DNA from: Escherichia coli
GTDB lineage: Bacteria; Pseudomonadota; Gammaproteobacteria; Enterobacterales; Enterobacteriaceae
Assembly: GCF_011045215.1 (NCBI RefSeq)
Contig: NZ_CP049202.1
Length of the DNA: 64,000 bases
Direction: 5' to 3' (one strand)
This document shows positions 4,840-49,142 of the stretch, one piece after another (the first letter of the stretch is position 1; each line of letters opens with the position of its first letter). The translations under genes and the position numbers were made by a program. A model generated the notes under the pieces. That model was given only the letters and a program-made list of their open reading frames with translations. It did no database searches and was not told the origin of the DNA.

Positions 4840-5100
4840 CACAGAAAGAAGTCTTGAACTTTTCCGGGCATATAACTATACTCCCCGCATAGCTGAATTG
4901 TTGGCTATACGGTTTTTAGATGGCCCCGGTAATCTTTCTAGCTCGCCAAAGTTAAAGAAGATTATCGGGGTTTTCACTTTTCTGGCCCCTGTAAATCCAC
5001 ATCAGAACCAGTTCCCTGCCACCTTATGGTGTGGCCAGCCATAAAATTCCTTAAACGATCAGCAATCTATCACTCACGCCTGAGATAAGCAATAATGTGA
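4840..5100. promoter_or_regulatory. copA antisense RNA / leader-peptide control region of the RepFIIA replicon (approximate)
   Basis: position between copB and repA1 with local hairpins; boundaries not determinable by eye. Confidence 0.3.
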
Positions 5101-6765: not shown

Positions 6766-6915
6766 TTACTTCCGTGCTTCGTAGGCCAGAGTTATCTGCA
6801 CCACTGTATTTCTCCTGTGAATATTCAGCTCACACAACCGTTCCCTGAATATCAGTGAAAAACACAACAACGTGGCGCACACAGCGAGCAACCCTATAAG
6901 GGCATATTTCGTCAT
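6766..6915 (-). CDS. srnB: Hok/Gef-family membrane toxin SrnB-like, with overlapping mok-like leader frame to 6972
   Basis: MTKYALIGLLAVCATLLCFSLIFRERLCELNIHRRNTVVQITLAYEARK matches Hok-family SrnB. Confidence 0.75.
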   Translation of the reverse strand: MTKYALIGLLAVCATLLCFSLIFRERLCELNIHRRNTVVQITLAYEARK

Positions 6916-7260
6916 AAACTTTGACCTCTCTGCAAGGAAGAGGCTACAATCAGTAGTGTTAAGGTACTTCATGCAGACCTCACGAGTTAATGGATTAACG
7001 AGTGGGGTCTTCGCATTTCTGGTACCTGCGTCTTGCCTGAACCAGAAAGGCTCAGACACCCGCAGCGATAATACCACATTCCCGTTTGCCGGCCATGTAC
7101 CTGCATTTTCCGGTTATTATTATAAAAACGCCGGGGACGGGGAAAATTTGCTTTTTCCCGTTTCCGGGGTTGGACAACTGAGCAACGCGAAGGCGTCAGT
7201 TATTTCTGTTTATTACATTCTTCTGTATATTTTCTTTTTACAATTCGACACTGCCTTATC

Positions 7261-16864: not shown

Positions 16865-17602
16865 TTAATTCACAGAAACAGACCAGGTGTACCCTGTATG
16901 CCGGTGGTGATAACCGCCTGCAGTCCTGCCGGAAGAGACCTTCTTTGTAACAATGTCAGTCAGGCGCAATACTTCAGACCAGTCACTCCCATGCGGAAAC
17001 TGGATCTGAATAAAAAGGCGTACCCGTTCACGATGATCCAGAACTGTGTCCGGTTCATAAAGCAGACCACTATCAGGAGAAACACGGGACGTTTTATTGA
17101 TGAGTTCGTATTTATCGGCATGAGACAGTGATGAAAGCGCCCAGGTAATATTTTCGCCCTGATGACCATCAATACGACTGTTCCCCGGCGTCCAGGCAAT
17201 TTCCTGCGCATTCGCCACGATGATCTGTCTCGATACTTCTGCCAGCTTTTTTGAAGTACAGAATACCGGTGCCAGCACACACAGGGACAAAAAATTGCAG
17301 CTGACCGCTTCCGGTTTAACCGGACTGCTCCCGGATTTTTCAGGAAAAGATATTTTTGTCAGTATTTCAGTTAATTCCTTATGCCTGAGAGAGTTAATAA
17401 AGTGCATGACAAGCATCATGAGAAACAATATAACAATAAGCCCTCCGATAACCACTAAAAGGTCAGTATCAATATTATTGTTGTACAGATAGTCTTTAGT
17501 GGTCGCTGTATTATCCTGTATCACCGGGGGGTATTCAGTTACAGGCTTCTCAGTAAATTGATTATTCTCACCAACATATTCAGCGATATTGTCTGATGTC
17601 AT
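16865..17602 (-). CDS. hypothetical single-TM protein encoded in the traT-traD gap
   Basis: 245 aa from ATG at 17602 with GGAG RBS; one hydrophobic helix ([21 protein letters not shown]). Confidence 0.6.
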
Positions 17603-17804
17603 AATGACTTTCTCCGGAAGCTTCCGGCTTCGCCGGCAACACTTCACGGTCGCACAAAGAATTTGCACAACCGCTCAGTGTTTTCATATTTATTTCGGAA
17701 ACGCCGGGGAGAAATAAAATTTATTTTATTTCTTTCCGGGGTTGGACAACGAGCAAAGCGAGGCGTCAGTCAGGAGGCCGGTCAGACCAGCCTCCTGAAG
17801 ATAA

Positions 17805-19059: not shown

Positions 19060-21902
19060 AATGGTCCCTTCAGTTGATTCTTTTTCTCATCAATCATTTT
19101 TTTCACAGTCTCTTCTGATGGCTCAGGTATTATCTTTTGACTTTCTCGCTCTTCATTATATTTATTATTCTGAGATAATGCTTCTGTTTTATGGTGATTT
19201 TGTAGTTCAGAATACTGTTTTCTTACAATATTTTCCTCGCCTCGGATGCTGTTCTGAGTATCTCCGATATTACCTCGATATTCTGTGACCATATTATCAA
19301 CCTGATGTTTTACATCATCACGGATATTACTGTCCTGCGTTCTTTGATCAATAATGGCCTGATGCCCCTGATGGTCAGCAATAATATCCTGGCTGCCACC
19401 ACCCGAAGGTACGCTCTCCATTCCTTTACCAATATCGCCACGGGATTCACGCCAGGCATTATCAACACCAGGCTGTATCTGTTCCTGCACAAAAGACCAG
19501 GCCATCGCCCGACGGCGTTCTGCAATCTCCGGCGAACTGGTATTTGTCAGAATAGCTTCGGCATCCTGCGGTGCGTGTTTCATCACATACTGTGCAAACT
19601 GTTGCGACAAATCTTCACTCATCTGCCCACTCATGCTTTCAGTACGGGATGCCATTTCAGCATATTCATGGCTGCGGGTCATATTCGTCGTGTACTGGTC
19701 GTAACTCTGTTTCGCTGAGTTCAGGGCTGCAGACAGCTGGTCCACACGGGAATCGGCATTATTGTCAGTATGGCTGCCGGACTCACTGACTTTGCGACTG
19801 GTAAAGTAATCGCTGGCCTCTTTAAAGTCCTTACTGGCTTTAGCATCGATATCATGTCGAGCATCATGGGTAGCCCTGCTGCCACTACTTGCAGAATGTG
19901 AATCATCATCCGTTCGATCAAGACTTCCCTTAAATCCGCCTCTGACACCAACTCCACCACCAACCCCAAGAATTTTAGGTTTAATCCCCCATTCAGCATG
20001 AGCATCTGCATATCCGCCATACGAGAACTTAGAACCTGTTGATGCCAGTTCCTGAGTCGCCTGCTCATTACTGATATTATGCGCTTTCGCATAGCTTTCC
20101 ACTGCACTGCGCATACGGCTGGCCATCATGGAGTCCTGTGCGCTCATCGTGCTGTCAGCGCCACCGGTGACAGAATCACTGCTCCCCCGGTTAGAACCAA
20201 ACTGACTGAGCGTATTCCAGGCACTGGCAATACTGCTGCTGAACCCATGCAGGGCGCTTTCTGCTCTGTTCGATGCCTCCCGGGCCATTTCCTGTTGTGC
20301 CGCCGCAATCTGACGCGTTGCATTGATACCGACCGGTAAACGGGACATCGCTCCGCTTGCATCCATAACCATATTACCGTCACGGGTCTGTGTGGCGGTT
20401 GCGCCACTGCCGGTCTGGTACATCATCTGACCAAACGACGTGGTGCTGTTGGTGCTCCAGCTGAAGCCGTTCACGTTTTCCGTCTGCATGTTGCCGTAGG
20501 AGTAATTACCGTCAACCACACTGCCTGCTGCACTGGCCGTCGGACTGATAGATGAAGAGGCGAAGTGGCTGTACACACTGGAAAAACCTGCGCCAAGGCC
20601 TTTTACCATCATCCATGACAACGGGGGTATCATGACAGATATATATCCGGCAGTGGACGCCAGGTCGGAGTATTTCAGCTGTATCTGAGAGAGTTCAGAG
20701 AGCACGACCGGTGCACCATTCTGCTTTGCATAGAATGTCATGGCACTGTTCAGAATGGCATACAGCAACGGCCAGGTCTGGAACCACATCAGGGCAAACA
20801 CATAGCCCTTCAGTACAGACAGCGTTAACCTGTTGAAGACCGCCGCCAGTACCAGGAGCGGGAAGATACCAATGGTAATGCCCACCAGAATGGTCTGCAC
20901 CATCGGCAGGTTTCGCATCAGCACATGACCAATGGAGACATGTGCCAGACGCTGTTTCTCCATCGACGAGGTCGTGGCCAGACTGACCAGGCTGGCGGTA
21001 TCACCGTTACGGGCTGCATTACTGGTGATACCCTCTTTCAGGGCATTCATGGTGACGTTCTGGCGCATAATATGGCTGGCAGACTGGCTGGAGCCGTAGA
21101 AATAACTGTAACTGTCACTCACCAGTTGCCTGAATAACAGGTCCGGGTCCGGTCTGCCGCCAAATATCTGCTGGACATAATAATGCCAGGTCTTGCCTCC
21201 GGTATTCGTATCAAAATTCAGCTTATCCTTCAGTCCGACGGATGCGTCCTTACAGGACACAAACGGCTCTGAACTGTGCAGAAAACTGTAATTATTATTC
21301 GGCACCTGACGTAAAGGGCTGGGCTGAGAAAAGATTATGGTGTACGGGTCAGAGGAGGCCATCAGGTCTTCCAGCGTGTATTTGTGATTCAGGTAAATAT
21401 CACCCAGCACGCAGTTCTGGACGTAGTCCTGAAACAGATTGATGATTTCCGGATTCCGGGACAGAAAATCGGTGCTTTTCACAATCAGGTTCGCCCCGAA
21501 CAGCATGCCTGTCTTGCTGTAGGTGGCGCTGTCAGGCTGAGCGAACACCATCTCATAGCCGGCCACCATTGCATGCCCGATACGGGTCGTCAGTGAAAGT
21601 GGCATCGCCAGTCCGACCGGCACATTATCCACCCGATGGACTTTGACCAGGTCACTGTTATCAATAATCTGCACCGACGTGCGGACATTAACCAGCAGGC
21701 TGATAAGCACAAACACGGCCACCCAGCCCAGCAAATCCATCACGTTGTGCCGCTGTACCCATATCACGGCCACCGCGAGAACAGACAATGTGAGCGCAAT
21801 TTTTTCAATGGAATCCCACGTCCTGGTTCCCATAAAGGCGGCAATGGCGTTCAGGTTATTCCGCAACCATTCACCACCGGCAATCACATAAACTTCATTC
21901 AC
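19056..21902 (-). CDS. traG: TraG mating-pair stabilisation / entry-exclusion protein
   Basis: 948 aa with N-terminal polytopic membrane domain; position and size as F TraG. Confidence 0.9.
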   Translation of the reverse strand: MNEVYVIAGGEWLRNNLNAIAAFMGTRTWDSIEKIALTLSVLAVAVIWVQRHNVMDLLGWVAVFVLISLLVNVRTSVQIIDNSDLVKVHRVDNVPVGLAMPLSLTTRIGHAMVAGYEMVFAQPDSATYSKTGMLFGANLIVKSTDFLSRNPEIINLFQDYVQNCVLGDIYLNHKYTLEDLMASSDPYTIIFSQPSPLRQVPNNNYSFLHSSEPFVSCKDASVGLKDKLNFDTNTGGKTWHYYVQQIFGGRPDPDLLFRQLVSDSYSYFYGSSQSASHIMRQNVTMNALKEGITSNAARNGDTASLVSLATTSSMEKQRLAHVSIGHVLMRNLPMVQTILVGITIGIFPLLVLAAVFNRLTLSVLKGYVFALMWFQTWPLLYAILNSAMTFYAKQNGAPVVLSELSQIQLKYSDLASTAGYISVMIPPLSWMMVKGLGAGFSSVYSHFASSSISPTASAAGSVVDGNYSYGNMQTENVNGFSWSTNSTTSFGQMMYQTGSGATATQTRDGNMVMDASGAMSRLPVGINATRQIAAAQQEMAREASNRAESALHGFSSSIASAWNTLSQFGSNRGSSDSVTGGADSTMSAQDSMMASRMRSAVESYAKAHNISNEQATQELASTGSKFSYGGYADAHAEWGIKPKILGVGGGVGVRGGFKGSLDRTDDDSHSASSGSRATHDARHDIDAKASKDFKEASDYFTSRKVSESGSHTDNNADSRVDQLSAALNSAKQSYDQYTTNMTRSHEYAEMASRTESMSGQMSEDLSQQFAQYVMKHAPQDAEAILTNTSSPEIAERRRAMAWSFVQEQIQPGVDNAWRESRGDIGKGMESVPSGGGSQDIIADHQGHQAIIDQRTQDSNIRDDVKHQVDNMVTEYRGNIGDTQNSIRGEENIVRKQYSELQNHHKTEALSQNNKYNEERESQKIIPEPSEETVKKMIDEKKNQLKGPL

Positions 21903-26504: not shown

Positions 26505-28379
26505 TTACAGTCCTGCCTGTTTCAGCTGGTCAGCAATCTGCTCTTTCACTTTCTGCGTCAGAACACCACTGTCCGGGATTTTCTGGTTATTCATCAGGTC
26601 TTCGTAGAAGTTAGTGAAATCCAGTCTGTCGAACTGAATTTTCTGCAGCTCATCAACCGTAATCCCCCGACAGTCAGGATGCTTCGCACTGCCAAAACTG
26701 ATACGCAACTGACCGTTGCGCCCCTGCTGCTGGACTATCTGCGCCAGCTTCGAATCAAACTGACAGTAGCTGCGTTTTTTCTCCAGACAGACGCCCAGCA
26801 CTTTCTTCGAACAGAACTCCCCGACGCTGACGGTCAGTTTGTTTGATTTTTCTTTAGCCAGGGCTTTTTCATCACTGCTGCATTTGGCCAGCCCGATATC
26901 CTGTCCCCAGCCGCTGTCCTTACAGCAGTTGCTGTATCCGGCTGCTGCCTTCTTACAAAATTTCGCCTGACCGGTGAAAGCACGGACATCCACCCCGTTC
27001 AGCGCCGCAATATCCTTACCTGCAGCGGCCAGTGCCGCCAGCTGAGAAACAGCTTCGGCAAAATCATTACTCTGCCCGCTCTGAGCCTTATCGCATTCGC
27101 CATCGAGACAGAAGACGTCTCCCCCACAGAGCATCACTTTCCCGGATGTTTTTGACTCACAGGAGTACGTGGCATATTCATGCAGACAGGCACCTTCTTC
27201 GGAGTAAAAGGCGCACTGGTGTGACACCAGGGTACAGGCTGGATTGTCGGTGTAGGTCTGACAGGTTCCCTTGTCTGCTGACTGTGTGACATACGTGTCC
27301 CGGTATGCCCAGCAGCTCTGGTACATGCTGTATGACTGACCGTCTTTCACCAGCGTCCTGTTCCCGCCAGCCTCCGTACATTCTGTTTTTGTCAGTTTCC
27401 CCAGCTCCTTGCTGAACGGGCAGCTTTCAGACCAGACAACATACGGGGTGTACGAGGCTTTTTTTACCCTGACAACCAGACGCAGCTTCATTGCCGTATG
27501 ACGTTTGAATTTTGTATTCCCGACCCGGACGGGGTGAGATGACGTAAAAGCCACACCGGCAGTCAGTGTTTTCTGTACTGGTGTAAATGAGGCATCTGCT
27601 GAGTATTTGGCATTCCAGCTCAGTGGGGTTCCCAGTACTGTAATTGTCATAGGTACACTCTTCTGCAGGTAAGTACGACTCCAGCTGTAATGCGCATCGA
27701 CAATTTCACCGGTAACGGGAGAGGTAATGGAGACAACATACTGACCATTCACTTCACGTGCAGGTAGCTGACTCATTTCATACTCCAGCGTCCGGGTTTC
27801 CCATGTGGTACTCCCCTGCAGCTCCATACGGGCAGTTCGTGTGCAGTACTGCTCCACCTGTAAATCCCTCTCACAGGTATAATTCGTGTATTCACTCCGG
27901 CTAATCTCCTGCGCACTGCACTGCTGCCCGGTGTTTCCCACAATGCTGTCAGCCCGGTTCACCACATCCCTGTCGGTCTGGATAAACGGTGCATCCGGTG
28001 AAAGAATGTCTTTCGGCTTGTTCATGAATGACTCTGTGATGGTTTTTCCGGTTTCACCGGTCGCCCATTCCGTGGTGCCGTCATTTTTCAGGCCGCCATC
28101 CCCGCCGGCAGTCACGCCACCGTAATATTTTGTCTCGTCCGGATTCGCGTTATAGCCGGGGATACTCTCCTGTGGCTTAAAGCCCTGAATACTGCTGCTT
28201 CCCTGTCCTTTGATCTGGTGAGCAAAATCAGAGCCGGCCCGGTAATCACTGTTGCTGTCAGCAAACACAGAAAAGCTCAGGAAAAAAACAATTGCACAAA
28301 GATTGCACGGCTTTACGGAATAATTAAAATTCAGAGATCTGAAAAAGGTATTTATCTTTTCTTTCATAACCTGAACCAT
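26505..28379 (-). CDS. traN: TraN outer-membrane mating-pair stabilisation protein
   Basis: 624 aa, signal peptide, cysteine-rich C-terminal half. Confidence 0.85.
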   Translation of the reverse strand: MVQVMKEKINTFFRSLNFNYSVKPCNLCAIVFFLSFSVFADSNSDYRAGSDFAHQIKGQGSSSIQGFKPQESIPGYNANPDETKYYGGVTAGGDGGLKNDGTTEWATGETGKTITESFMNKPKDILSPDAPFIQTDRDVVNRADSIVGNTGQQCSAQEISRSEYTNYTCERDLQVEQYCTRTARMELQGSTTWETRTLEYEMSQLPAREVNGQYVVSITSPVTGEIVDAHYSWSRTYLQKSVPMTITVLGTPLSWNAKYSADASFTPVQKTLTAGVAFTSSHPVRVGNTKFKRHTAMKLRLVVRVKKASYTPYVVWSESCPFSKELGKLTKTECTEAGGNRTLVKDGQSYSMYQSCWAYRDTYVTQSADKGTCQTYTDNPACTLVSHQCAFYSEEGACLHEYATYSCESKTSGKVMLCGGDVFCLDGECDKAQSGQSNDFAEAVSQLAALAAAGKDIAALNGVDVRAFTGQAKFCKKAAAGYSNCCKDSGWGQDIGLAKCSSDEKALAKEKSNKLTVSVGEFCSKKVLGVCLEKKRSYCQFDSKLAQIVQQQGRNGQLRISFGSAKHPDCRGITVDELQKIQFDRLDFTNFYEDLMNNQKIPDSGVLTQKVKEQIADQLKQAGL

Positions 28380-28392
28380 ACTGGAGAATGAA

Positions 28393-28614
28393 GTGATGTC
28401 ATCTCAACTTCAGAACTGTGTTGATTGTGGTAAAGCATTAAGTCGAACAGCCACAACGTGCGGGAATTGCAGCTCAACGGACCCTTTTGGAAAAAAACGG
28501 CGCAGTGATCGCTTTTACCAGTGGTTTGTAGGGCTGTTTATTACGGCTATTATTATTGCTGGCGGATTATGGTACATGGGGCTTCTTGACGTACCGGGAT
28601 TACTACTCAGATAA
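28393..28614 (+). CDS. hypothetical zinc-ribbon plus TM protein, antisense to tra
   Basis: 73 aa; CVDCG...CGNC followed by a hydrophobic helix. Confidence 0.35.
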   Translation: MMSSQLQNCVDCGKALSRTATTCGNCSSTDPFGKKRRSDRFYQWFVGLFITAIIIAGGLWYMGLLDVPGLLLR

Positions 28615-28983
28615 CGACTTCAGTAACGATATCAGTGTTCTGAAATCGGCACATAACGAGTGACGACAATACCGGTTATACCAGTAATGAGGGGTGTCGG
28701 GCTGAAGCCTGAAACAGAGCTGAAACTCACTGTTAAAAGCCCCCTTCACCGACCATCCCCATGCCAGACGTGGTATTGCTGATTCAGCATCCTGCCGCAG
28801 TCGCTGCTCAAGAAGGGCAGCCATTTTTACCGGACAGGCAAAGGCAATATAAGGAGGCAGCTTTGTAACAGGGAAACCATGTCCCTGACAGGAAGCATAT
28901 GTGCGGAAGCCGTGAATGTTCATCGCGGCCACCAGGGCACGGATCTCCGGATCAATCTGATAATACCCGGCAGGTAAAGTCAT
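28603..28983 (-). CDS. hypothetical protein encoded between trbC and traN
   Basis: 126-aa ORF overlapping the trbC stop (tra-operon style coupling). Confidence 0.45.
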   Translation of the reverse strand: MTLPAGYYQIDPEIRALVAAMNIHGFRTYASCQGHGFPVTKLPPYIAFACPVKMAALLEQRLRQDAESAIPRLAWGWSVKGAFNSEFQLCFRLQPDTPHYWYNRYCRHSLCADFRTLISLLKSLSE

Positions 28984-29636
28984 TTTTGTTTATCTCCCGG
29001 GTTATTCAGCAACGCCCGAGCCACCTGCCGGCAGTCCCCCGTGGCGGCCACTTTCTCCAGCGCCTGGCCGACCCGCAGGTTCCCCCGGATAATGTCGTAT
29101 CCCTGACTGCAGAACACCACCAGTGCCGGTACACTGCGAATGCCGTACTGTGAAAACAGCGTCGGGTCGATCTGAACACCATCAGTCGCGCCGTCTTTCA
29201 CCAGGGACAGCACGGCTTCAGCGGTGGTCTTCAGGTCATTGTTCACCATGCCCCGCAGTGTGGCGGGTATACCGTAGTGCCGGGTTTCGCCCAGCATCCG
29301 TTTCAGCCCCTCTTCGGGAATGGAAAACGACACAAAATACAGGGCACCCTGCCGGGGTTTCCCGTCCTGCGAAGCCTGCTGTTTACGAACCAGCTCATCC
29401 AGAAAATGGTTATCTGAACGCTGAAGGGGGTTTTCCAGCACCAGTTTCTCCGCCCAGGCCTTCAGCTGATGGTCAGGTTTTTCACGCAGTTGTCTGCTTA
29501 AATTTTCCTGCTGCTTCAGGAACTGGCGGTTTTCAGGAGTGTTCACATTTTCTGAGGCATGAACAGTGATATGCATCCCTGCAGTCAGGGCAAAAAGCGC
29601 AAATATTTTCCAGTTCATGATATATCCTGATGGCAT
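28980..29636 (-). CDS. trbC: TrbC periplasmic pilus assembly protein
   Basis: 218 aa with signal peptide; size and position as F TrbC. Confidence 0.8.
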   Translation of the reverse strand: MPSGYIMNWKIFALFALTAGMHITVHASENVNTPENRQFLKQQENLSRQLREKPDHQLKAWAEKLVLENPLQRSDNHFLDELVRKQQASQDGKPRQGALYFVSFSIPEEGLKRMLGETRHYGIPATLRGMVNNDLKTTAEAVLSLVKDGATDGVQIDPTLFSQYGIRSVPALVVFCSQGYDIIRGNLRVGQALEKVAATGDCRQVARALLNNPGDKQK

Positions 29637-29645
29637 TATTACAAT

Positions 29646-30098
29646 TTAATTACCCGTAGGGTTTTCTCTCAGTTTTTCTGCCAGTTTTAAAAAAGCATCA
29701 AATTCTTTCTGATCTGCACATATTTTACTGGCTGTAACCGACACGGTTATTCCTGATATGTTATTGGCAGAGTCTTTAACATCATTATTATGGACGGAGA
29801 CATTATCGGGACTGAAAATATAAACCTTTTCTCTGGGATAATCCCTGTCCACATCCTCCCGCCACTGAATCTGTTCTTTATCAAAACGGTGATACATTAT
29901 TGAGGAAAACCGGCACAGCCAGTCGTCAATGCATGACAGCTTATCCAGTAATTGTTGCGAATGACGGACCTCACTGGCAAGCTGCCGGCACTCCATAATG
30001 CACCGTGACACACCACCATTTGCATTCACAAGCGCTTTCATTTCCAGCAGAACACCCATATCAAGTATTCTGGAGCCATATTTTATATTATTACTCAT
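29646..30098 (-). CDS. hypothetical soluble protein (AT-rich cargo between traU and trbC)
   Basis: 150-aa ORF with no recognisable motif. Confidence 0.5.
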   Translation of the reverse strand: MSNNIKYGSRILDMGVLLEMKALVNANGGVSRCIMECRQLASEVRHSQQLLDKLSCIDDWLCRFSSIMYHRFDKEQIQWREDVDRDYPREKVYIFSPDNVSVHNNDVKDSANNISGITVSVTASKICADQKEFDAFLKLAEKLRENPTGN

Positions 30099-30441
30099 TA
30101 CATCCTCCTCTGTTTTTGTTTACACACTTACCTGGCATAAACGCATCAGAGCACAAATATTTAAAAAACACAGCAGCAAAAGCACACACAAATGCAGCTT
30201 TCAGATATAGCCGGACCAGAAACATTTTCCCTGACATATCTGACTGTTGCCATTCATAAATAACCTCACTGAGGACACTATCAGGAACAAAATAAAACAA
30301 TATTGCAGGTGCCATTACCAGATTAAAAGGAAACCATTTTAATGGTTCATTTATCAGCCGGATAAGCACACAACCTGTTCTTTTTAAATTATGTGTGTAT
30401 TTACTTTTTATCATCTCAATTTTCATAGATATTCCTCTCAT
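30091..30441 (-). CDS. hypothetical membrane protein (AT-rich cargo between traU and trbC)
   Basis: 116-aa ORF with hydrophobic segments. Confidence 0.45.
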   Translation of the reverse strand: MRGISMKIEMIKSKYTHNLKRTGCVLIRLINEPLKWFPFNLVMAPAILFYFVPDSVLSEVIYEWQQSDMSGKMFLVRLYLKAAFVCAFAAVFFKYLCSDAFMPGKCVNKNRGGCNE

Positions 30442-30454
30442 TTGTTAACTCGAT

Positions 30455-31447
30455 TTACAGGAAGACACAGTTACGTTTACGCCACATCAGGTAGCCGAAG
30501 TTTTTCTTTGTGTTGGGCGGATTTTTCCCGGTTTCCCAGCGGGTCACGCTGCGCCCGAACGGGTGGCACTGTCCGCTGTCCGGGTACATATTCACCATCT
30601 GGTAACGCCAGCGTTCTTTGGGCAGGATTGGGGACGGATATTCATTACAGACGGCGTTATTTTTCCCGATGGTTTCCATAATCATGCCCTGACGGTGCAG
30701 CTTGAACGCCATGCGTTCACTGACCAGCAGGGAGGACTGCAACGGACTGGACTCATTACTCACCCAGCCATTGAACGGGTACATGCTGCCCTGCGAGCCG
30801 GCACACCAGAACAGAACATCGAGAGGCATATTAAAGGCGCTGGCAATCGCATCTGCTGCACAGGCCCCCTGTGCTATCGGATTGGCAAAGATGACAGCTT
30901 CCGGATTGAGAATGGTGGTCAGGCTGCTGTCCGTCCAGGTGGGGTCAATTTCAGAAAGATAAGCGATATCCAGGTCACCACCTTCCAGACAGCCCAGCGA
31001 TGTGATGATGTTAAGCCAGTACGTCAGCGGGTATTTGTACCAGTGAACGTGATAGAACGCCCCGTTCACCTGCTTCTCATCCTTTTTCGCCGTTCCCTGT
31101 GCCGTTTTACCAAAAGCCGGCAGGCTGAAGCCCAGGTTCACCATGCATCCCGGTGACCGGGTGACGTCCGTCAGCGCCATCGGCTCCCAGTAACCAATGG
31201 CCAGCCCGATACGCCTGAACAGCGGCGGCGGTGCCGGACAAATCTGAATGGGCATCGACGGGTTCGCCGTGTCGGGGACCTTACCCTGACTGACTTTGAT
31301 ACTGCCCAGCGAGAGCGGGAAAATACAGCTCCAGCAGATATCCGTGATCGGGTTTACAAAACGCCCCTCACAGGCAGAATCCGCAGACGCCGCAGGGACA
31401 TGACCGGCGAGAAGGAATAACATCAGCAGCCACAGGCTTCGCTTCAT
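30455..31447 (-). CDS. traU: TraU pilus assembly / DNA transfer protein
   Basis: 330 aa, same length as F TraU, signal peptide. Confidence 0.9.
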   Translation of the reverse strand: MKRSLWLLMLFLLAGHVPAASADSACEGRFVNPITDICWSCIFPLSLGSIKVSQGKVPDTANPSMPIQICPAPPPLFRRIGLAIGYWEPMALTDVTRSPGCMVNLGFSLPAFGKTAQGTAKKDEKQVNGAFYHVHWYKYPLTYWLNIITSLGCLEGGDLDIAYLSEIDPTWTDSSLTTILNPEAVIFANPIAQGACAADAIASAFNMPLDVLFWCAGSQGSMYPFNGWVSNESSPLQSSLLVSERMAFKLHRQGMIMETIGKNNAVCNEYPSPILPKERWRYQMVNMYPDSGQCHPFGRSVTRWETGKNPPNTKKNFGYLMWRKRNCVFL

Positions 31448-32453: not shown

Positions 32454-32536
32454 AATAATGCCCCTGTTTTCTCTGTTTCCTCTTTGCGGTAATATGCTTC
32501 CCTGATTTTCAGGTAAGTTAAAAAGGTGCGTTTTAT

Positions 32537-33644
32537 ATGACGAAAAAAATCCTCTTATTTTCCCTGATTTTTATTTTTAGTATCACCGGCACTTTTTCTC
32601 TTATGATAAACGGCAAACAGAAAAAAAGTGCAGATAAAATCATTCCCGCAATCAACGCTAAATATAATAATAAATGGCTTACACACAGATTAATAAAAAT
32701 GGACTATGATAATGGAACGGCTTTATCTGTTATTCAGAAAGCATGGAATAACACCGAATACTTCATCCTCTCAGCCAGAAAAAAAATGCCAGTCAGCCAC
32801 AACCACTCTTAATTTTCTTTACTGCACAAATGATTTGCTTGGCGAAATGTTTCCTTATAAGGAATCCAATATGGTCAGCCCGGCATATGCCAGTCAGTTC
32901 TCTGATTGCGATCTGAATGTCTATCTTCTCATTGACGCAGCAAAAGAATCTGGCAGGCAGATTGAGATCATATTCGCCCCCTTCCACGCTTTTATTTCAT
33001 ATATTGATGATAATAATGCAAGAGCATACTGGGAAACAACCGCCAACCATAATAAAGGTTCTGTTGCGGATTTAAATGATAATCACTGGTATCAAAAAAC
33101 ATTCAATAAATTCTATTATGTTCCTCGTAGTGAAAATTACATAGAATCACTCTACTCTGTACTGATTGCAAATAGTGTAGACTCATCACATAAAAAAGAA
33201 ATATACAACAATCTTAAGCCGGAAATAAAAAAGACACCATTAGCCTATGATCTGTACTACAGCATGAAAAATGAAATCTCGTCTCAGGATGCCGAACAGA
33301 TTAATCTTTTGTTAAGAGAAGACATTACCTCATCATATAAACAACTTCTTCTTACCGGATACTTCATTAAAAACAACAATACAGAAGCAGCCCAAAAAAT
33401 CATTGACAACATACGAGCAAAAAACTGTAAATCAGACTGCATTAGGTTTAAGAAAAAAGTGTACTGGTACTTTTTTCCATCATATCTGATCTCTCAATAT
33501 GCATCGGAATTTGGCGTCACACTATCCCTTGAAGATATATATTATTATTACGCATTCAATATTATCATTATTCTGTTTAGTTCCCTTTTATTTTTGCCTA
33601 AAAGCAGAGATAAGAACAAGAAAAGGCGTGAGAACAATAAATAA
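32537..33644 (+). pseudogene. secreted Y/N/K-rich protein gene, antisense to tra, apparently frameshifted at an A8 tract
   Basis: 91-aa ORF with signal peptide continues as a 312-aa ORF in another frame; both frames read KK across the A8 run at 32779..32786. Confidence 0.45.
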
Positions 33645-34004
33645 CAGAGCAGGCACACCCCCATCCATAAGGAAACTCAGGGGGAGACTGCAGGTTACAG
33701 GCACCATGATATAGCATCCCATCACGATCAAAGGGCGATGACGACACAGTTCTGTATATTCATATAACCCGGTTCTGCCATATAAATCCCTGACAAGCAA
33801 AGACGGAGCAATCATAAACAAAACGCTTACAATGGCATAAATCATCAGCACATATTTTGTTTCTCTCAGAAATGGTTCCGGTGTATTTATTTCTGATTCA
33901 ACAAAACGCTCATACCAGTACAGAAACAGGTCGCCACAGGCCACACTGTTAAGGATAAAAAATAAGACAATATCAGATACCTTCTTTATATGACAAAATT
34001 TCAT
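33588..34004 (-). CDS. hypothetical polytopic membrane protein between traC and trbI
   Basis: about 138 aa from internal start; convergent 3' overlap with the plus-strand ORF. Confidence 0.4.
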   Translation of the reverse strand: MKFCHIKKVSDIVLFFILNSVACGDLFLYWYERFVESEINTPEPFLRETKYVLMIYAIVSVLFMIAPSLLVRDLYGRTGLYEYTELCRHRPLIVMGCYIMVPVTCSLPLSFLMDGGVPALLFIVLTPFLVLISAFRQK

Positions 34005-34026
34005 ATATACCCCTTGTGACCAACCC

Positions 34027-36672
34027 TTAACCCCAGTTTCCTGACATTCGTTCGCCGGACATTTCATGCTCTTTTAACCAGGCTTCCAGCGAAGCCATCT
34101 CCGGCCCTGACTTCTTCCACGCCAGCTGCCACACCGCCTCATGAATACTCAGGCCCTCTTTACGCTTCTGCTGCACAAACTCAAAATCCGGGCCGTCGGA
34201 GCTGTACATGGCACGGCTTAACGGGTCCACAAACAGACGGTGCCAGGAGGAATGGTTTTCCACCTGCAGCAGGAAGGAACTGAACCACTGGTCTTTAGCC
34301 GCACCAAACTTGCCAATCATGTCCCGCTGCAGTGGCAGGAACTGGTCCGGGAATAACTGGTTATATTTCGCGAACTCCTTCGCACTCTGTTTGAGGATAA
34401 TTTTGTAGGAGGAGTTACCCCATGCCGCACGGGCCGCACTGGAGGCCTTGTCAGAGTCAAAGTCGACGATGTTCTGTGTGATGGTGATATAGGCACCGGT
34501 ATGACGGCGACAGGTGCGGTAACCTTTTTGAATAAACTCACCGACTTTACGATTTTTGAAGTCCAGCAGACGCCAGCCTTCATCAATGACGTTCAGTTTT
34601 TTGAGAGTACGCGGCGTGCGGTACATCCTGTTCTCGATGTAGATAATCAGGGAGAACATCACCGCAACCAGCAGGGACGGACGGTCTTCCAGTCCACCCA
34701 GCTCCAGCACCACCATTCTGGCATCATCCCGCAGGGACGGTTCATCAGAGTTAAAATACCGGCCGTAAGTGCCGCCAGCGGTATATTGATCCAGAAGGAC
34801 AATCATTTCATCCAGACGGCTGCGGATGGTCGGAGACTCGACATACTGGTCGTTATCACGGGCGTTTTTCAGGAAATCCACCACATCATCGATGCGCGCC
34901 TTATTCTTTTTAGCCAGCCAGGAGGCCCTGACCGCCTGCAGCAGCAGACCTTCATGTACTTCATCCAGGTTACCGTTGGGGCTGGCCATCACCGACAACT
35001 GGTCACGGACACGCTCCGCTGACTGGTCAATATCAGTGATGTTCGCAAACGGGTTAAAACGCAGGGTTTCACCGTCCAGATATACGCCCCCCATGTTCTC
35101 ACACAGGGACTTGTAGCCATCCCCCATGTCGAACACCACGGCAAAGCCCCCGGAGTCCAGCACGCTGCGGATAAGTGGCTGTATCAGTCCGGTTTTACCG
35201 GCCCCGGAGGTGCCACAGACCGCCATGTTGTAGTTGGTGTTATTCATCCCCTTAAAGAAGATATCGATAAACGCCAGCTGGTTACGGTAGGTGGGCGCCA
35301 GCAGACCTGCCGGTGTCAGGGGATTATCCGCCACTAACGGCATCAGGTTGGCCACATTAAAACTCTCTGCCCGCTGTACCACTCCGGCCTCTTTCAGCTG
35401 TTTAAACAGCCCTTTCCCGGCCATAAAGGGCAGGCAGGTCAGGAAATTGCGCATGTGGTTAAAGCGCGGTGAAATCAGCTCAAAACCGTTTTTACGAAAG
35501 CTGTTCAGGATGTCCTGCTCCACTTCCAGTGCCGTTTCATTATTGTCCCTGCAGAAGGCTGTGATGTTGAGGAAGTAGGACACGACAGAAGACTGGCCGG
35601 AGCCCAGCCGCTGGCGCAGTTCCCCCCACTCCTTCGCCTCCTTTTCAACTGACGGAAACCATTTGGCATAGGAGGTCTTCGACTTTTTCTCCAGGTCCAT
35701 GTACTTCAGGTTGGCTTCGCTGTGGGTTTTCACCTGGTCTTCCACCACCAGAGTCAACGTCAGGATGAACGGGCAGGAAATGGACATTTCCGGGTTCAGC
35801 AGATTGCTGTAGTTGTCGGCCATGTTCCACAGGAAGGCGATTTCCGGGTTACGGGCCAGATGGAAATTCAGGATGCGGGCCGTGCTGTTCCTGCCGTTCT
35901 CACGCAGGCCCAGCGTCAGGTAATCAGCCCGGACTTTCAGGTCAAAACTGTCCTCCACACACTGATAATTCAGATCAGAATACGGATCCAGCTGACGTCT
36001 TTTCGGGTACAGAGAGTCCGGATTATGGTTAATCATCTCCCCGACAATCTCGATGAAAGCCTGTGCATCCACTGTCTGTGTGGTGATTTTTGCGCCGTGA
36101 AAAGAGGCACGGATGATTTTCACCAGATTTTCCATTTCCAGAATGTCAGCCCGGCTTTTTTTCTTCGAGGGAGAACAGTACGAGATAAACACCCGGTAAT
36201 GGCGCAGGGTCAGGGGCAGATTCATCCCCTCCGGCAGCGGGAACTGTGTCGCTGCCGCTTTCATATAATAGGCACGGGTAATGGCGTTAAACCGTTCAGC
36301 CTGTTCACCTGACCAGGAGAACTCACGCAGCCCGTATTCAATCCTGTCACCAACCAGCTGACTGGACATCAGATGGATACACAACGGAATACCGCGCGGC
36401 AGTTTGGTGCGCAGCATATGATCGAGAGCCTCCACAATGGACTCATTCGCACCATTGATGGGAATGGCTTCCAGCATAAAGCCCATCGTGGTGTCATTCA
36501 TGAACAGGCCGGACTCCTGGTTGTAATCACGGTACGGCAGCAGACGGCTGAACTGCGGGAAGCTCATCTCACCGAGGATCTGATTAGCCTGAGAGGATTC
36601 ATCCGGTAATTTAAGCGCAGTCAGCAGTGAATTAACCGCCTGAGTGACGGTCTCAAGTGGGTTTTTACTCAT
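34027..36672 (-). CDS. traC: TraC VirB4-like ATPase
   Basis: 881 aa; Walker A GTSGAGKT. Confidence 0.95.
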   Translation of the reverse strand: MSKNPLETVTQAVNSLLTALKLPDESSQANQILGEMSFPQFSRLLPYRDYNQESGLFMNDTTMGFMLEAIPINGANESIVEALDHMLRTKLPRGIPLCIHLMSSQLVGDRIEYGLREFSWSGEQAERFNAITRAYYMKAAATQFPLPEGMNLPLTLRHYRVFISYCSPSKKKSRADILEMENLVKIIRASFHGAKITTQTVDAQAFIEIVGEMINHNPDSLYPKRRQLDPYSDLNYQCVEDSFDLKVRADYLTLGLRENGRNSTARILNFHLARNPEIAFLWNMADNYSNLLNPEMSISCPFILTLTLVVEDQVKTHSEANLKYMDLEKKSKTSYAKWFPSVEKEAKEWGELRQRLGSGQSSVVSYFLNITAFCRDNNETALEVEQDILNSFRKNGFELISPRFNHMRNFLTCLPFMAGKGLFKQLKEAGVVQRAESFNVANLMPLVADNPLTPAGLLAPTYRNQLAFIDIFFKGMNNTNYNMAVCGTSGAGKTGLIQPLIRSVLDSGGFAVVFDMGDGYKSLCENMGGVYLDGETLRFNPFANITDIDQSAERVRDQLSVMASPNGNLDEVHEGLLLQAVRASWLAKKNKARIDDVVDFLKNARDNDQYVESPTIRSRLDEMIVLLDQYTAGGTYGRYFNSDEPSLRDDARMVVLELGGLEDRPSLLVAVMFSLIIYIENRMYRTPRTLKKLNVIDEGWRLLDFKNRKVGEFIQKGYRTCRRHTGAYITITQNIVDFDSDKASSAARAAWGNSSYKIILKQSAKEFAKYNQLFPDQFLPLQRDMIGKFGAAKDQWFSSFLLQVENHSSWHRLFVDPLSRAMYSSDGPDFEFVQQKRKEGLSIHEAVWQLAWKKSGPEMASLEAWLKEHEMSGERMSGNWG

Positions 36673-44126: not shown

Positions 44127-44774
44127 TTATCTTCCCAATATTTCTTTTACTTTAGCATATAAAGGAAGTATCTTTTCCGTTCTAATCATTTCATCCAACC
44201 AGAGATCTCTAGAACTAAATCCATATCGTTTAAATAATTTCATGGTTTTCTTCTTTGATTTAGACACAGTGATGTTCATCTTTGCTGATGAATAATGATG
44301 GCTAAACCCTATCAGATATGGCTCAATGCCTACATATTCATCAGAGGGTACAATTAATTCATTGGAGTATTTAGACACAACAAACGATGACAGATTATCA
44401 TTTGCTACCCAAATAAACCTCCAGATGAAGAAATAGCCGCATGGTGTTATAACACTTTCTATGATCACACTCCATAACGTATTATTAAGTAATATGTCAT
44501 TATTACAATTTACACCATAAATAGAAGAGCATGATTCAATCTCTGCTCTGGATAACTGTAATTTACATTCCAACGTTAAACTATCAAACCATTCATCACA
44601 TGAATTAAAGGACGATCTGATAAGTTTTTCAAAGCAGTTATTTTCCTTAATAAAAGAACCATCCTCGAAGCGGATACATACAGGATATTTTAAAAACGAA
44701 ATAGCCTCTCCAAGACTATGAGGGAAATGCAATTGACTGATGAGTGCTCTTTCTCTACGATCCATCGCACACAT
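44127..44774 (-). CDS. traJ: TraJ transfer activator
   Basis: 216 aa from ATG at 44774 preceded by GGAGG; position between traY and traM. Confidence 0.7.
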
Positions 44775-44857
44775 AGGAACCTCCGTTAAGGATTCTATGG
44801 ACAGTCGATGCAGGGAGTGGCTGCTCCCTGCATCGGCGATTTTCAGTTTCAATTTTT
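44771..44857 (+). ncRNA. finP: FinP antisense RNA (approximate ends)
   Basis: plus-strand stem-loop over the traJ RBS/start, then perfect stem-loop GATGCAGGGAG...CTCCCTGCATC followed by a U-rich tail. Confidence 0.45.
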
Positions 44858-44964
44858 AACGTGGCATTAACCACGTAATCAATATACTAATTATTCTGAT
44901 TATTGTCATCAGTTCGAACCATAAAAAACTCTGATATTTGAACAAAGTCAAAATTTATTTCCCT

Positions 44965-48709: not shown

Positions 48710-48868
48710 CTACTTACCGGATTCGTAAGCCATGAAAGCCGCCACCTCCCTGTATCCGTCTCTGTAACGAATCTCGCACAGCGATTTTCGTGTCAGATAA
48801 GTGAATATCAACAGTGTGAGACACACGATCAACACACACCAGACAAGAGAGCTGCGTGGTAGTTTCAT
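48710..48868 (-). CDS. hok: Hok/FlmA membrane toxin, with overlapping mok-like frame to 49009
   Basis: [52 protein letters not shown], near-identical to Hok. Confidence 0.85.
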
Positions 48869-49142
48869 GGCCTTCTTCTCCTTGCGCAAAGCGCGGTAAG
48901 AGGCTATCCTGATGTTGTCTAAGCATGCAGGGGCCTCGTGGGTTAATGAAAAATTAACTACGGGGCTTTTGTCCTTCTGCCACACAACACGGCAACAAAC
49001 CACCTTCACGTCATGAGGCAGAAAGCCTCAAGCGCCGGGCACATCATAGCCCATATCCCTGCACGCTGACCACACTCACTTTTCCTGAAAATAATCCGCT
49101 CATTCAGGCTGTTTACGGGTAATCTGTGTGATTGTTGCCGCA

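Follow-up and report, generated by a model that had tools for sequence, protein, structure and literature searches.

What are two AT-rich genes doing at a point of an F-like transfer operon where the F plasmid itself carries none, and do they represent a single foreign insertion? In Escherichia coli, Salmonella, and Klebsiella, resistance and virulence genes are carried mainly by F-like plasmids, whose transfer operons have been under study for decades. The stretch of 64,000 nucleotides analyzed here (E. coli contig NZ_CP049202.1, assembly GCF_011045215.1; called the window in the following) carries such an operon on its minus strand. Between traU and trbC, co-oriented with the tra genes, it holds two open reading frames (ORFs), termed gene 1 and gene 2 in this study. 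We found that the pair is an uncommon combination of alleles of two widespread accessory families at a junction known to be variable. Judged by sequence, both are members of unnamed families: gene 1 of membrane ORFs in the traU-trbC position of R100-type plasmids, and gene 2 of helical proteins of F-type transfer operons that carry an ECR motif.

Organization of the locus

Upstream of the pair lies traU (30455..31447, minus strand, 330 aa; stop codon TAA at 30457..30455), which is named TraU in the 99.4%-identical plasmid NZ_CP010123 and whose product shares about 99.7% amino-acid identity with TraU of R100. Downstream follows trbC (28980..29618, minus strand), encoding 212 aa from the ATG at 29618, with AGGA 6 nt upstream and an alternative start at 29636. 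The slot from the traU stop to the trbC start has a low GC content and spans 836 nt (29619..30454, minus strand). A first-pass annotation had described traU and trbC as neighbors in F, and indeed only 8 nt separate them in NC_002483.

That annotation had placed two ORFs in operon orientation in the slot, at 30091..30441 (116 aa) and 29646..30098 (150 aa), and both are present; for gene 1, the extent of the ORF stands, but the likely start does not. The ATG at 30426, which gives 111 aa (30091..30426, minus strand), is the more likely start because a Shine-Dalgarno sequence GAGG, read from the sequence (30434..30437, minus strand), lies 7 nt before it, while the ATG at 30441 adjoins that ribosome-binding site. 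PGAP also starts gene 1 of NZ_CP010123 at the position equivalent to 30426. Gene 2 (29646..30098, minus strand, 150 aa) has a GGAGG ribosome-binding site (30108..30104, minus strand) 5 nt upstream of its ATG at 30098. The stop of gene 1 and the start of gene 2 overlap by 8 nt, ATGAGTAA (30091..30098, minus strand), which suggests translational coupling, and the same 8-nt overlap is annotated in loci L001, L020-L022, L027, and L028.

With a GC content of 34-44%, as against 54-59% in traU and trbC, the insert is as AT-rich relative to its flanks as had been claimed. There is no convincing promoter or terminator between the gene pair and traU or trbC, and the number of promoter-like and terminator-like matches in 28300..31000 is near chance expectation. 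Flanking direct or inverted repeats were not found at the edges of the slot, and a mobile-element origin was rejected for that reason; likewise, an RNA element was rejected, since an Rfam search of the traU-trbC region gave no match.

A family of predicted inner-membrane proteins

The description of gene 1 as a membrane protein and of gene 2 as a soluble one agrees with two hydrophobic segments in the former and none in the latter. Hydropathy peaks of gene 1 reach 1.58 and 1.95, helix 1 being borderline hydrophobic and the topology being predicted from charge bias alone. An AlphaFold2 (AF2) model built from a 39-sequence alignment, with a predicted local distance difference test (pLDDT) score of 69, shows helices at residues 2-30, 32-46, 49-61, and 64-92 that form a helical hairpin. 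Across the family, the mean numbers of K+R and D+E residues are 4.2 and 1.2 in the N-terminus, 0.6 and 4.2 in the loop, and 3.5 and 1.5 in the C-terminal tail; from this distribution and the positive-inside rule, an N-in/C-in protein is predicted whose periplasmic loop is acidic and about 18 residues long. Gene 1 is thus predicted to encode a two-helix inner-membrane protein with both ends in the cytoplasm. Conservation is highest in helix 1 and the loop and lowest in the N-terminus and the tail, and six residues, K30, P33, Y45, P48, W59, and D63, are invariant (alignments A3 and A4).

Relatives of gene 1 were detected by tblastn in 1976 plasmid records, the ORFs of R100 and pSLT being matched over most of the length of gene 1 at E values of 2e-24 to 1e-10, and a profile search extended the family to 192 clusters at 90% identity. 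Homologs of gene 1 are intact down to 28% identity and retain the invariant residues; taking both families together, motifs are conserved over a range of 28-97% identity. At every homolog locus inspected (L001, L003-L007, L009, L019-L023, L025, L027, and L028), the gene is found in operon orientation between traU and trbC. The ORFs of R100 (WP_000224416.1), a pSLT-like plasmid (WP_010999945.1), and the IncFII plasmid pHNEPSSH018 (WP_000412447.1), with 101-103 aa, occupy the same slot and strand; they are 30-57% identical to gene 1, similar in size, and share the two predicted hydrophobic helices and the invariant K, P, Y, P, W, and D. They differ in that gene 1 of the window has a C-terminal tail of 10-13 residues, GKCVNKNRGGCNE, which overlaps the start of gene 2, whereas the R100 and pSLT versions stand alone. 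For none of these three homologs was a described function found.

A family of helical proteins with an ECR motif

Gene 2 reveals neither a signal peptide nor a hydrophobic segment, and its AF2 model (pLDDT 73) shows a bundle made of helices only, residues 99-114 being disordered, so that a cytoplasmic, all-helical protein is predicted. Its most prominent features are an invariant E36-C37-R38 motif (alignments A5 and A6) and a conserved I57-D58 ('ID') segment; the core common to the family reads GG-x5-[IL]-[LM]-E-C-R, followed by [FY]-I-[DE].

Relatives of gene 2 occur in 709 plasmid records (tblastn), and only 18 were retrieved when 1.84 billion representative proteins were searched exhaustively with a profile. 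One of the relatives is the 173-aa protein WP_015059014.1 of pHNEPSSH018 and p397Kp, which is 32% identical to gene 2 and is likewise encoded inside an F-type transfer operon. Another is P0252, a 122-aa protein from an F-type lineage that is only distantly related, its TraU sharing 69% identity with that of the window. Comparison of the gene 2 and P0252 families by hhalign (A2 against A6) gave a probability of 98.5% and an E value of 3.9e-15, the A6 profile matches gene 2 at 5e-11, and both P0252 and the 173-aa protein share the GG...ECR and ID-x-W motifs with gene 2. The gene for P0252 also lies between traU and trbC; in contrast to gene 2, it lacks the C-terminal third and a gene 1 partner, its GC content equals that of the flanks, and it overlaps the trbC start. 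It was found in 228 plasmid records from at least 11 genera, and hosts of this lineage include Salmonella, E. coli, Citrobacter, Yersinia, and Enterobacter.

In Serratia, further relatives are located at other junctions, namely traC-trbI in S. fonticola and traW-traU in S. marcescens. One subgroup, from Klebsiella-type plasmids, lies outside any transfer operon and near repA: in the Klebsiella sp. plasmid NZ_AP022191 (L017, 1222-1761), a 180-aa protein with two N-terminal hydrophobic helices is encoded upstream of repA, with a DUF2726 gene and a phospholipase-D-family gene on either side. In the plasmid survey with P0252, many of the 72 records at less than 60% identity appear to be of this L017 type. 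An 89%-identical homolog of gene 2, P0002, is labelled Staphylococcus aureus in NCBI and stems from a 31-kb contig, most likely as a result of contamination or as a mislabelled enterobacterial plasmid contig.

Contents of the traU-trbC slot

The distribution of the two families was assessed by fusing traW-traU of the window directly to trbC, searching a plasmid collection with this sequence, and taking 60 records spread over the ranking. Both flanks were joined in 41 rows, all from F/R100-lineage plasmids, with inserts ranging from 8 to 1287 nt. The slot was empty in 17 of the 41, with 8-9 nt as in F, and occupied in the rest, so that cargo is present in roughly 60% of this sample of 41 and missing from roughly 40%. 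The most frequent insert, of 343 nt (13 rows), is the R100 type with gene 1 only. Five rows had 942-946 nt, a length as in the pHNEPSSH018 type (945 nt), two had 994-996 nt, and two had 1287 nt, corresponding to a three-gene type; single rows had 589 nt and 836 nt, the latter being the window type. The exact arrangement of the window is rare in a wider set as well: coverage of the 1.3-kb query reached 80% or more in only 46 of 4394 flank-matching plasmid records.

Individual plasmids illustrate how these contents differ. F has nothing but the 8 nt between traU and trbC; R100 has a 101-aa gene 1 homolog in a slot of 343 nt, the pSLT-like plasmid a 102-aa homolog, and pHNEPSSH018 and p397Kp a 102-aa gene 1 homolog together with the 173-aa gene 2 homolog. 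In L002 and L027-L029, a 154-aa P-loop protein with the Walker A sequence GEEDTGKST (L002, 1772-2236; L027, 372-836; also in L028 and L029) precedes gene 1 and gene 2; this minimal P-loop protein gave only weak matches to generic ATPase or defense models. In L028, the P-loop gene is missing from the annotation and an A4-to-A3 length change is present; such homopolymer changes may be either real or sequencing errors. One or two extra genes for small membrane proteins precede gene 1 in L020, L022, L023, and L025. Those found right after traU are unrelated to one another and encode 122 aa (L020, 1971-2339), 161 aa (L023, 1480-1965), and 144 and 125 aa (L025, 715-1149 and 1944-2321); a further one, of more than 128 aa, follows traU in Serratia marcescens (L018, 2806-3189). 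None of these post-traU genes (L018, L020, L023, and L025) had a family match, and those of the F/R100 lineage have a low GC content. Overall, inserts in the F/R100 lineage show 34-45% GC, compared to 53-58% in their flanks.

Selection and exchange

Ratios of nonsynonymous to synonymous substitutions (dN/dS, Nei-Gojobori) range from 0.22 to 0.57 for gene 1 and from 0.13 to 0.53 for gene 2. For comparison, traU displayed 0.03-0.08 among close relatives and 0.19-0.25 in two distant pairs, and trbC 0.14-0.55. Intact homologs with conserved motifs, dN/dS values below 1, and the ribosome-binding sites together argue that both are real genes.

Between the window and R100, the synonymous divergence (dS) is 0.07 in traU and 1.34 in gene 1, a jump of about 18-fold at the traU stop codon, and the mosaic alignment places the breaks in divergence at this stop and just before the trbC ribosome-binding site. 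This jump and the lack of repeats at the edges point to replacement of the cassette by homologous recombination in the conserved flanks. The separate acquisition proposed in the first-pass annotation was therefore right in so far as the insert has a history of its own relative to its flanks. What does not hold is a one-off insertion of foreign cargo, given that about 2,000 plasmid records, including R100 and plasmids of the pSLT type, have relatives of gene 1 in the same slot, and that relatives of gene 2 belong to F-type transfer operons of several genera, some of them at the GC content of the flanks and overlapping the trbC start.

Relation of the two genes to each other

Within the F/R100 lineage, each gene 2 inspected comes after gene 1, mostly with the 8-nt overlap. 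Gene 1 is nevertheless found without gene 2 in R100, pSLT-like, and many other plasmids, and relatives of gene 2 are found without gene 1 in other lineages, so the two are not an obligate pair. One Logan short-read contig (L009, 4349-5539) carries traU, a 103-aa copy of gene 1, a 259-aa fusion protein (P0067), and trbC. P0067 is an in-frame fusion of a second, degenerate copy of gene 1 to a gene 2 homolog, and may have arisen by a genuine deletion between short stretches of microhomology or through faulty assembly. Together with the membrane-anchored relative from Klebsiella, it offers thin evidence suggesting that the ECR domain resides at the cytoplasmic face of the membrane.

Searches for function and comparison with known systems

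Searches of Pfam, NCBIfam, PHROG, and PADLOC with both proteins and their relatives gave nothing usable, and neither the Protein Data Bank (PDB) nor the AlphaFold database contained a relative that would give a function to either of them. For gene 1, these four collections, the PDB sequence search, and Foldseek against AFDB50 revealed no relative by fold or family; for gene 2, the PDB search was empty and Foldseek against AFDB50 returned its own family only. The profiles of both families, run against all ORFs of the window including the small Trb/Art genes, found no paralog and no other match. Homology and structure searches, which had been proposed as a check, thus produced relatives for both genes and a function-giving match for neither.

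That neither product resembles a known transfer protein was borne out: the genes are absent from F and have no match to a curated family or to a Tra/Trb model of NCBIfam or Pfam. As for defense systems in PADLOC-DB v2, gene 1 had no match and gene 2 a single weak one, to E1-E2 (E 7e-4). This candidate had drawn attention through an N-terminal E2-like region and the invariant cysteine of gene 2; it was rejected, as none of five relatives has the match and the model consists of helices throughout. The source records name proteins of both families 'hypothetical protein' or, on the basis of position alone, 'conjugative transfer protein'.

A full-text literature search found no paper describing the ORFs of gene 1 or gene 2. 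The possibility that they are conserved accessory genes with described functions, which would have spoken against novel cargo, thus applies in its first half, conservation, whereas no described function was found. The comparative study of F-like conjugation regions (Five Shades of F) profiled named tra genes only (PMC5102898); uncharacterized ORFs, orfX1-4, are reported for the tra region of pED208 (PMC10939261), and the tra region of R100 is reported to comprise 40 ORFs where that of F has 37, YhfA and YfhA being examples of those confined to R100 (PMC2762410). The closest parallels in character are TrbA, TrbE, TrbJ, TrbF, and ArtA of F and orfX1-4 of pED208 (PMC10939261), which are small, often membrane proteins, dispensable, located among essential tra genes, and co-transcribed with them. 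The Trb/Art proteins of F show no sequence relationship to gene 1 or gene 2, as the profiles match no other ORF of the window. TraS of F-like plasmids resembles gene 1 in being a low-GC, highly polymorphic inner-membrane protein of the tra operon with alleles that are swapped between plasmids otherwise alike; it differs in its position after traG, its larger size, and the lack of sequence similarity, and the predicted loop of gene 1 is conserved rather than variable.

Proposed role and alternative explanations

The explanation that we favor, with a confidence falling a little short of even, is that gene 1 and gene 2 are true accessory genes within the F-like transfer operon, non-essential ones that would form a membrane-associated module with a tuning or protective role in an exchangeable traU-trbC slot. 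Both would be transcribed with the tra operon and hence be made only in transfer-competent, piliated cells; the operon strand, the lack of a convincing promoter or terminator, the good ribosome-binding sites, and the 8-nt overlap all point to co-transcription. The gene 1 hairpin would reside in the inner membrane, where helix 1 and the acidic periplasmic loop, being the most conserved parts, may contact a conserved envelope partner. The helical bundle of gene 2 would work at the cytoplasmic face of this membrane, possibly docked on the gene 1 product, a placement suggested by the relative with two N-terminal membrane helices and by the gene 1-gene 2 fusion contig. Rather than being a structural part, the module may tune or protect the envelope of a cell with an active F-type secretion machine, and homologous recombination within the conserved flanks, rather than transposition, would refill the slot. 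The module is dispensable for the transfer of DNA itself, since F and about 40% of the sampled relatives do without it.

Several observations weigh against this explanation. The family, fold, and literature searches for a function were all empty, dN/dS is high for a component of a machine, and the low GC content is compatible with foreign cargo. Elsewhere the slot is occupied by unrelated small membrane proteins, which fits a hotspot of cargo or immunity genes at least equally well. A physical interaction of the two proteins is putative, and each gene occurs without the other; the gene 1 copies of L002 and L029 are frameshifted (T7-to-T8), and yet gene 2 is intact. The fusion protein P0067 is known from a single short-read assembly and is altered at otherwise invariant positions of gene 1.

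The main rival explanation, in our view unlikely, is that the pair serves immunity or exclusion, with small inner-membrane proteins co-expressed with the pilus, gene 2 as a cytoplasmic partner, and pilus-dependent phages, competing plasmids (through exclusion or fertility inhibition), or lethal zygosis as targets. Small membrane proteins encoded in transfer operons are often exclusion factors, as are TraS of F and TrbK of RP4, and immunity would account for at least five unrelated, low-GC genes for small membrane proteins in the slot of different plasmids, for highly diverse alleles swapped by recombination, for the relaxed dN/dS, and for an expression that would be tied to pilus production. 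However, the defense models of PADLOC, PHROG, and NCBIfam gave no match apart from the weak E1-E2 hit, which no relative shares, and the loop of gene 1 that is predicted to be exposed ranks with the best-conserved stretches of the protein rather than with the most variable ones, contrary to the expectation for an arms-race interface. Moreover, the gene 2 relatives with native GC content that are tightly coupled to trbC look like residents of the operon, and hosts of R100 and R1, both carriers of gene 1 homologs, still serve to propagate male-specific phages. A broader version, which we regard as doubtful, makes the whole junction a dedicated hotspot serviced by recombination, in which interchangeable small inner-membrane proteins, of which at least six unrelated kinds were seen, and the ECR protein would constitute an immunity or exclusion arsenal expressed only together with the pilus and directed against pilus-dependent phages or rival conjugative elements; if true, it would bring the logic of defense islands into the operon of a secretion system. 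Cargo that merely hitch-hikes in a permissive and well-expressed intergenic site, either nearly neutral or with a function for the host or its niche that is unrelated to conjugation, seems improbable to us. The low GC content, the absence from F and about 40% of the sampled relatives, the rarity of the exact window arrangement (46 of 4394 records), and the occurrence of individual genes of the three-gene cassette as pseudogenes with homopolymer frameshifts would all fit it. Against this, neither family was seen much outside F-type transfer operons, gene 1 was encountered only in the traU-trbC slot, and the gene 2 family has no more than 18 representatives among 1.84 billion proteins; in addition, purifying selection has acted over a deep divergence.

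Two further explanations receive hardly any credence. Two small overlapping genes, the first of them hydrophobic, could be taken for a toxin-antitoxin or addiction pair in which the soluble gene 2 product neutralizes a small hydrophobic toxin, gene 1. The genes occur independently of each other, and this very improbable reading was rejected on that ground: R100, pSLT-like, and many other plasmids have gene 1 by itself, relatives of gene 2 occur elsewhere with no gene 1, gene 2 is kept where gene 1 is frameshifted, and no toxin or antitoxin family is matched. Least probable of all, the ORFs could have arisen by chance in an AT-rich spacer whose role, if any, would be regulatory, for example in H-NS binding; the transfer operon is regulated by H-NS, the DNA is AT-rich within an operon, and the ORFs have no functional annotation. 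Intact ORFs with motifs conserved down to about 30% identity, dN/dS below 1, canonical ribosome-binding sites, and confident helical AF2 models all speak against chance.

Other accessory genes in the window

Rfam matches at gathering score identify CopA, two sok antitoxin RNAs (two hok/sok loci), an antisense-to-traG RNA, and FinP with the traJ 5' untranslated region in the window (4889-4979, 6905-7061, 21077-21162, 44768-44876, and 48866-49037), which marks it as an IncF plasmid backbone. Its transfer region holds cargo at other junctions as well. Between trbI and traC, direct neighbors in F, in R100, and in the plasmid closest to the window, lies an island of 31-42% GC (32454-34100) with a 312-aa ORF antisense to the operon (32706..33644, plus strand) and an ORF for a 159-aa multi-pass membrane protein that overlaps the 3' end of traC (33588..34067, minus strand); neither had a match in NCBIfam or PADLOC. 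This island was present in only 24 of 3471 matching plasmid records, and CP056356.1 carries it together with traU-trbC cargo of the window type.

The trbC-traN junction (28393-28983) also contains cargo: an ORF of 126 aa (28603..28983, minus strand), which overlaps the trbC stop by 4 nt, and one of 73 aa (28393..28614, plus strand) with a CxxC...CxxC arrangement followed by a hydrophobic helix, both without family matches. Other plasmids have a 123-aa ORF and an HNH endonuclease at this junction. Between traT and traD, a 267-aa ORF (16865-17668, minus strand) gave no match in NCBIfam or PADLOC; R100 has a 245-aa hypothetical ORF at this position.

Significance

About 60% of the sampled F/R100-lineage plasmids carry at least one uncharacterized gene between traU and trbC, and a relative of gene 1 is present even in textbook plasmids such as R100 and those of the pSLT type. 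If the products modulate the pilus or secretion, they could help to explain differences in transfer rate among closely related plasmids; if they are immunity factors, the junction would be a new place of plasmid defense genes. Should neither be the case, the slot would still be a useful marker of recombination among F-like plasmids.

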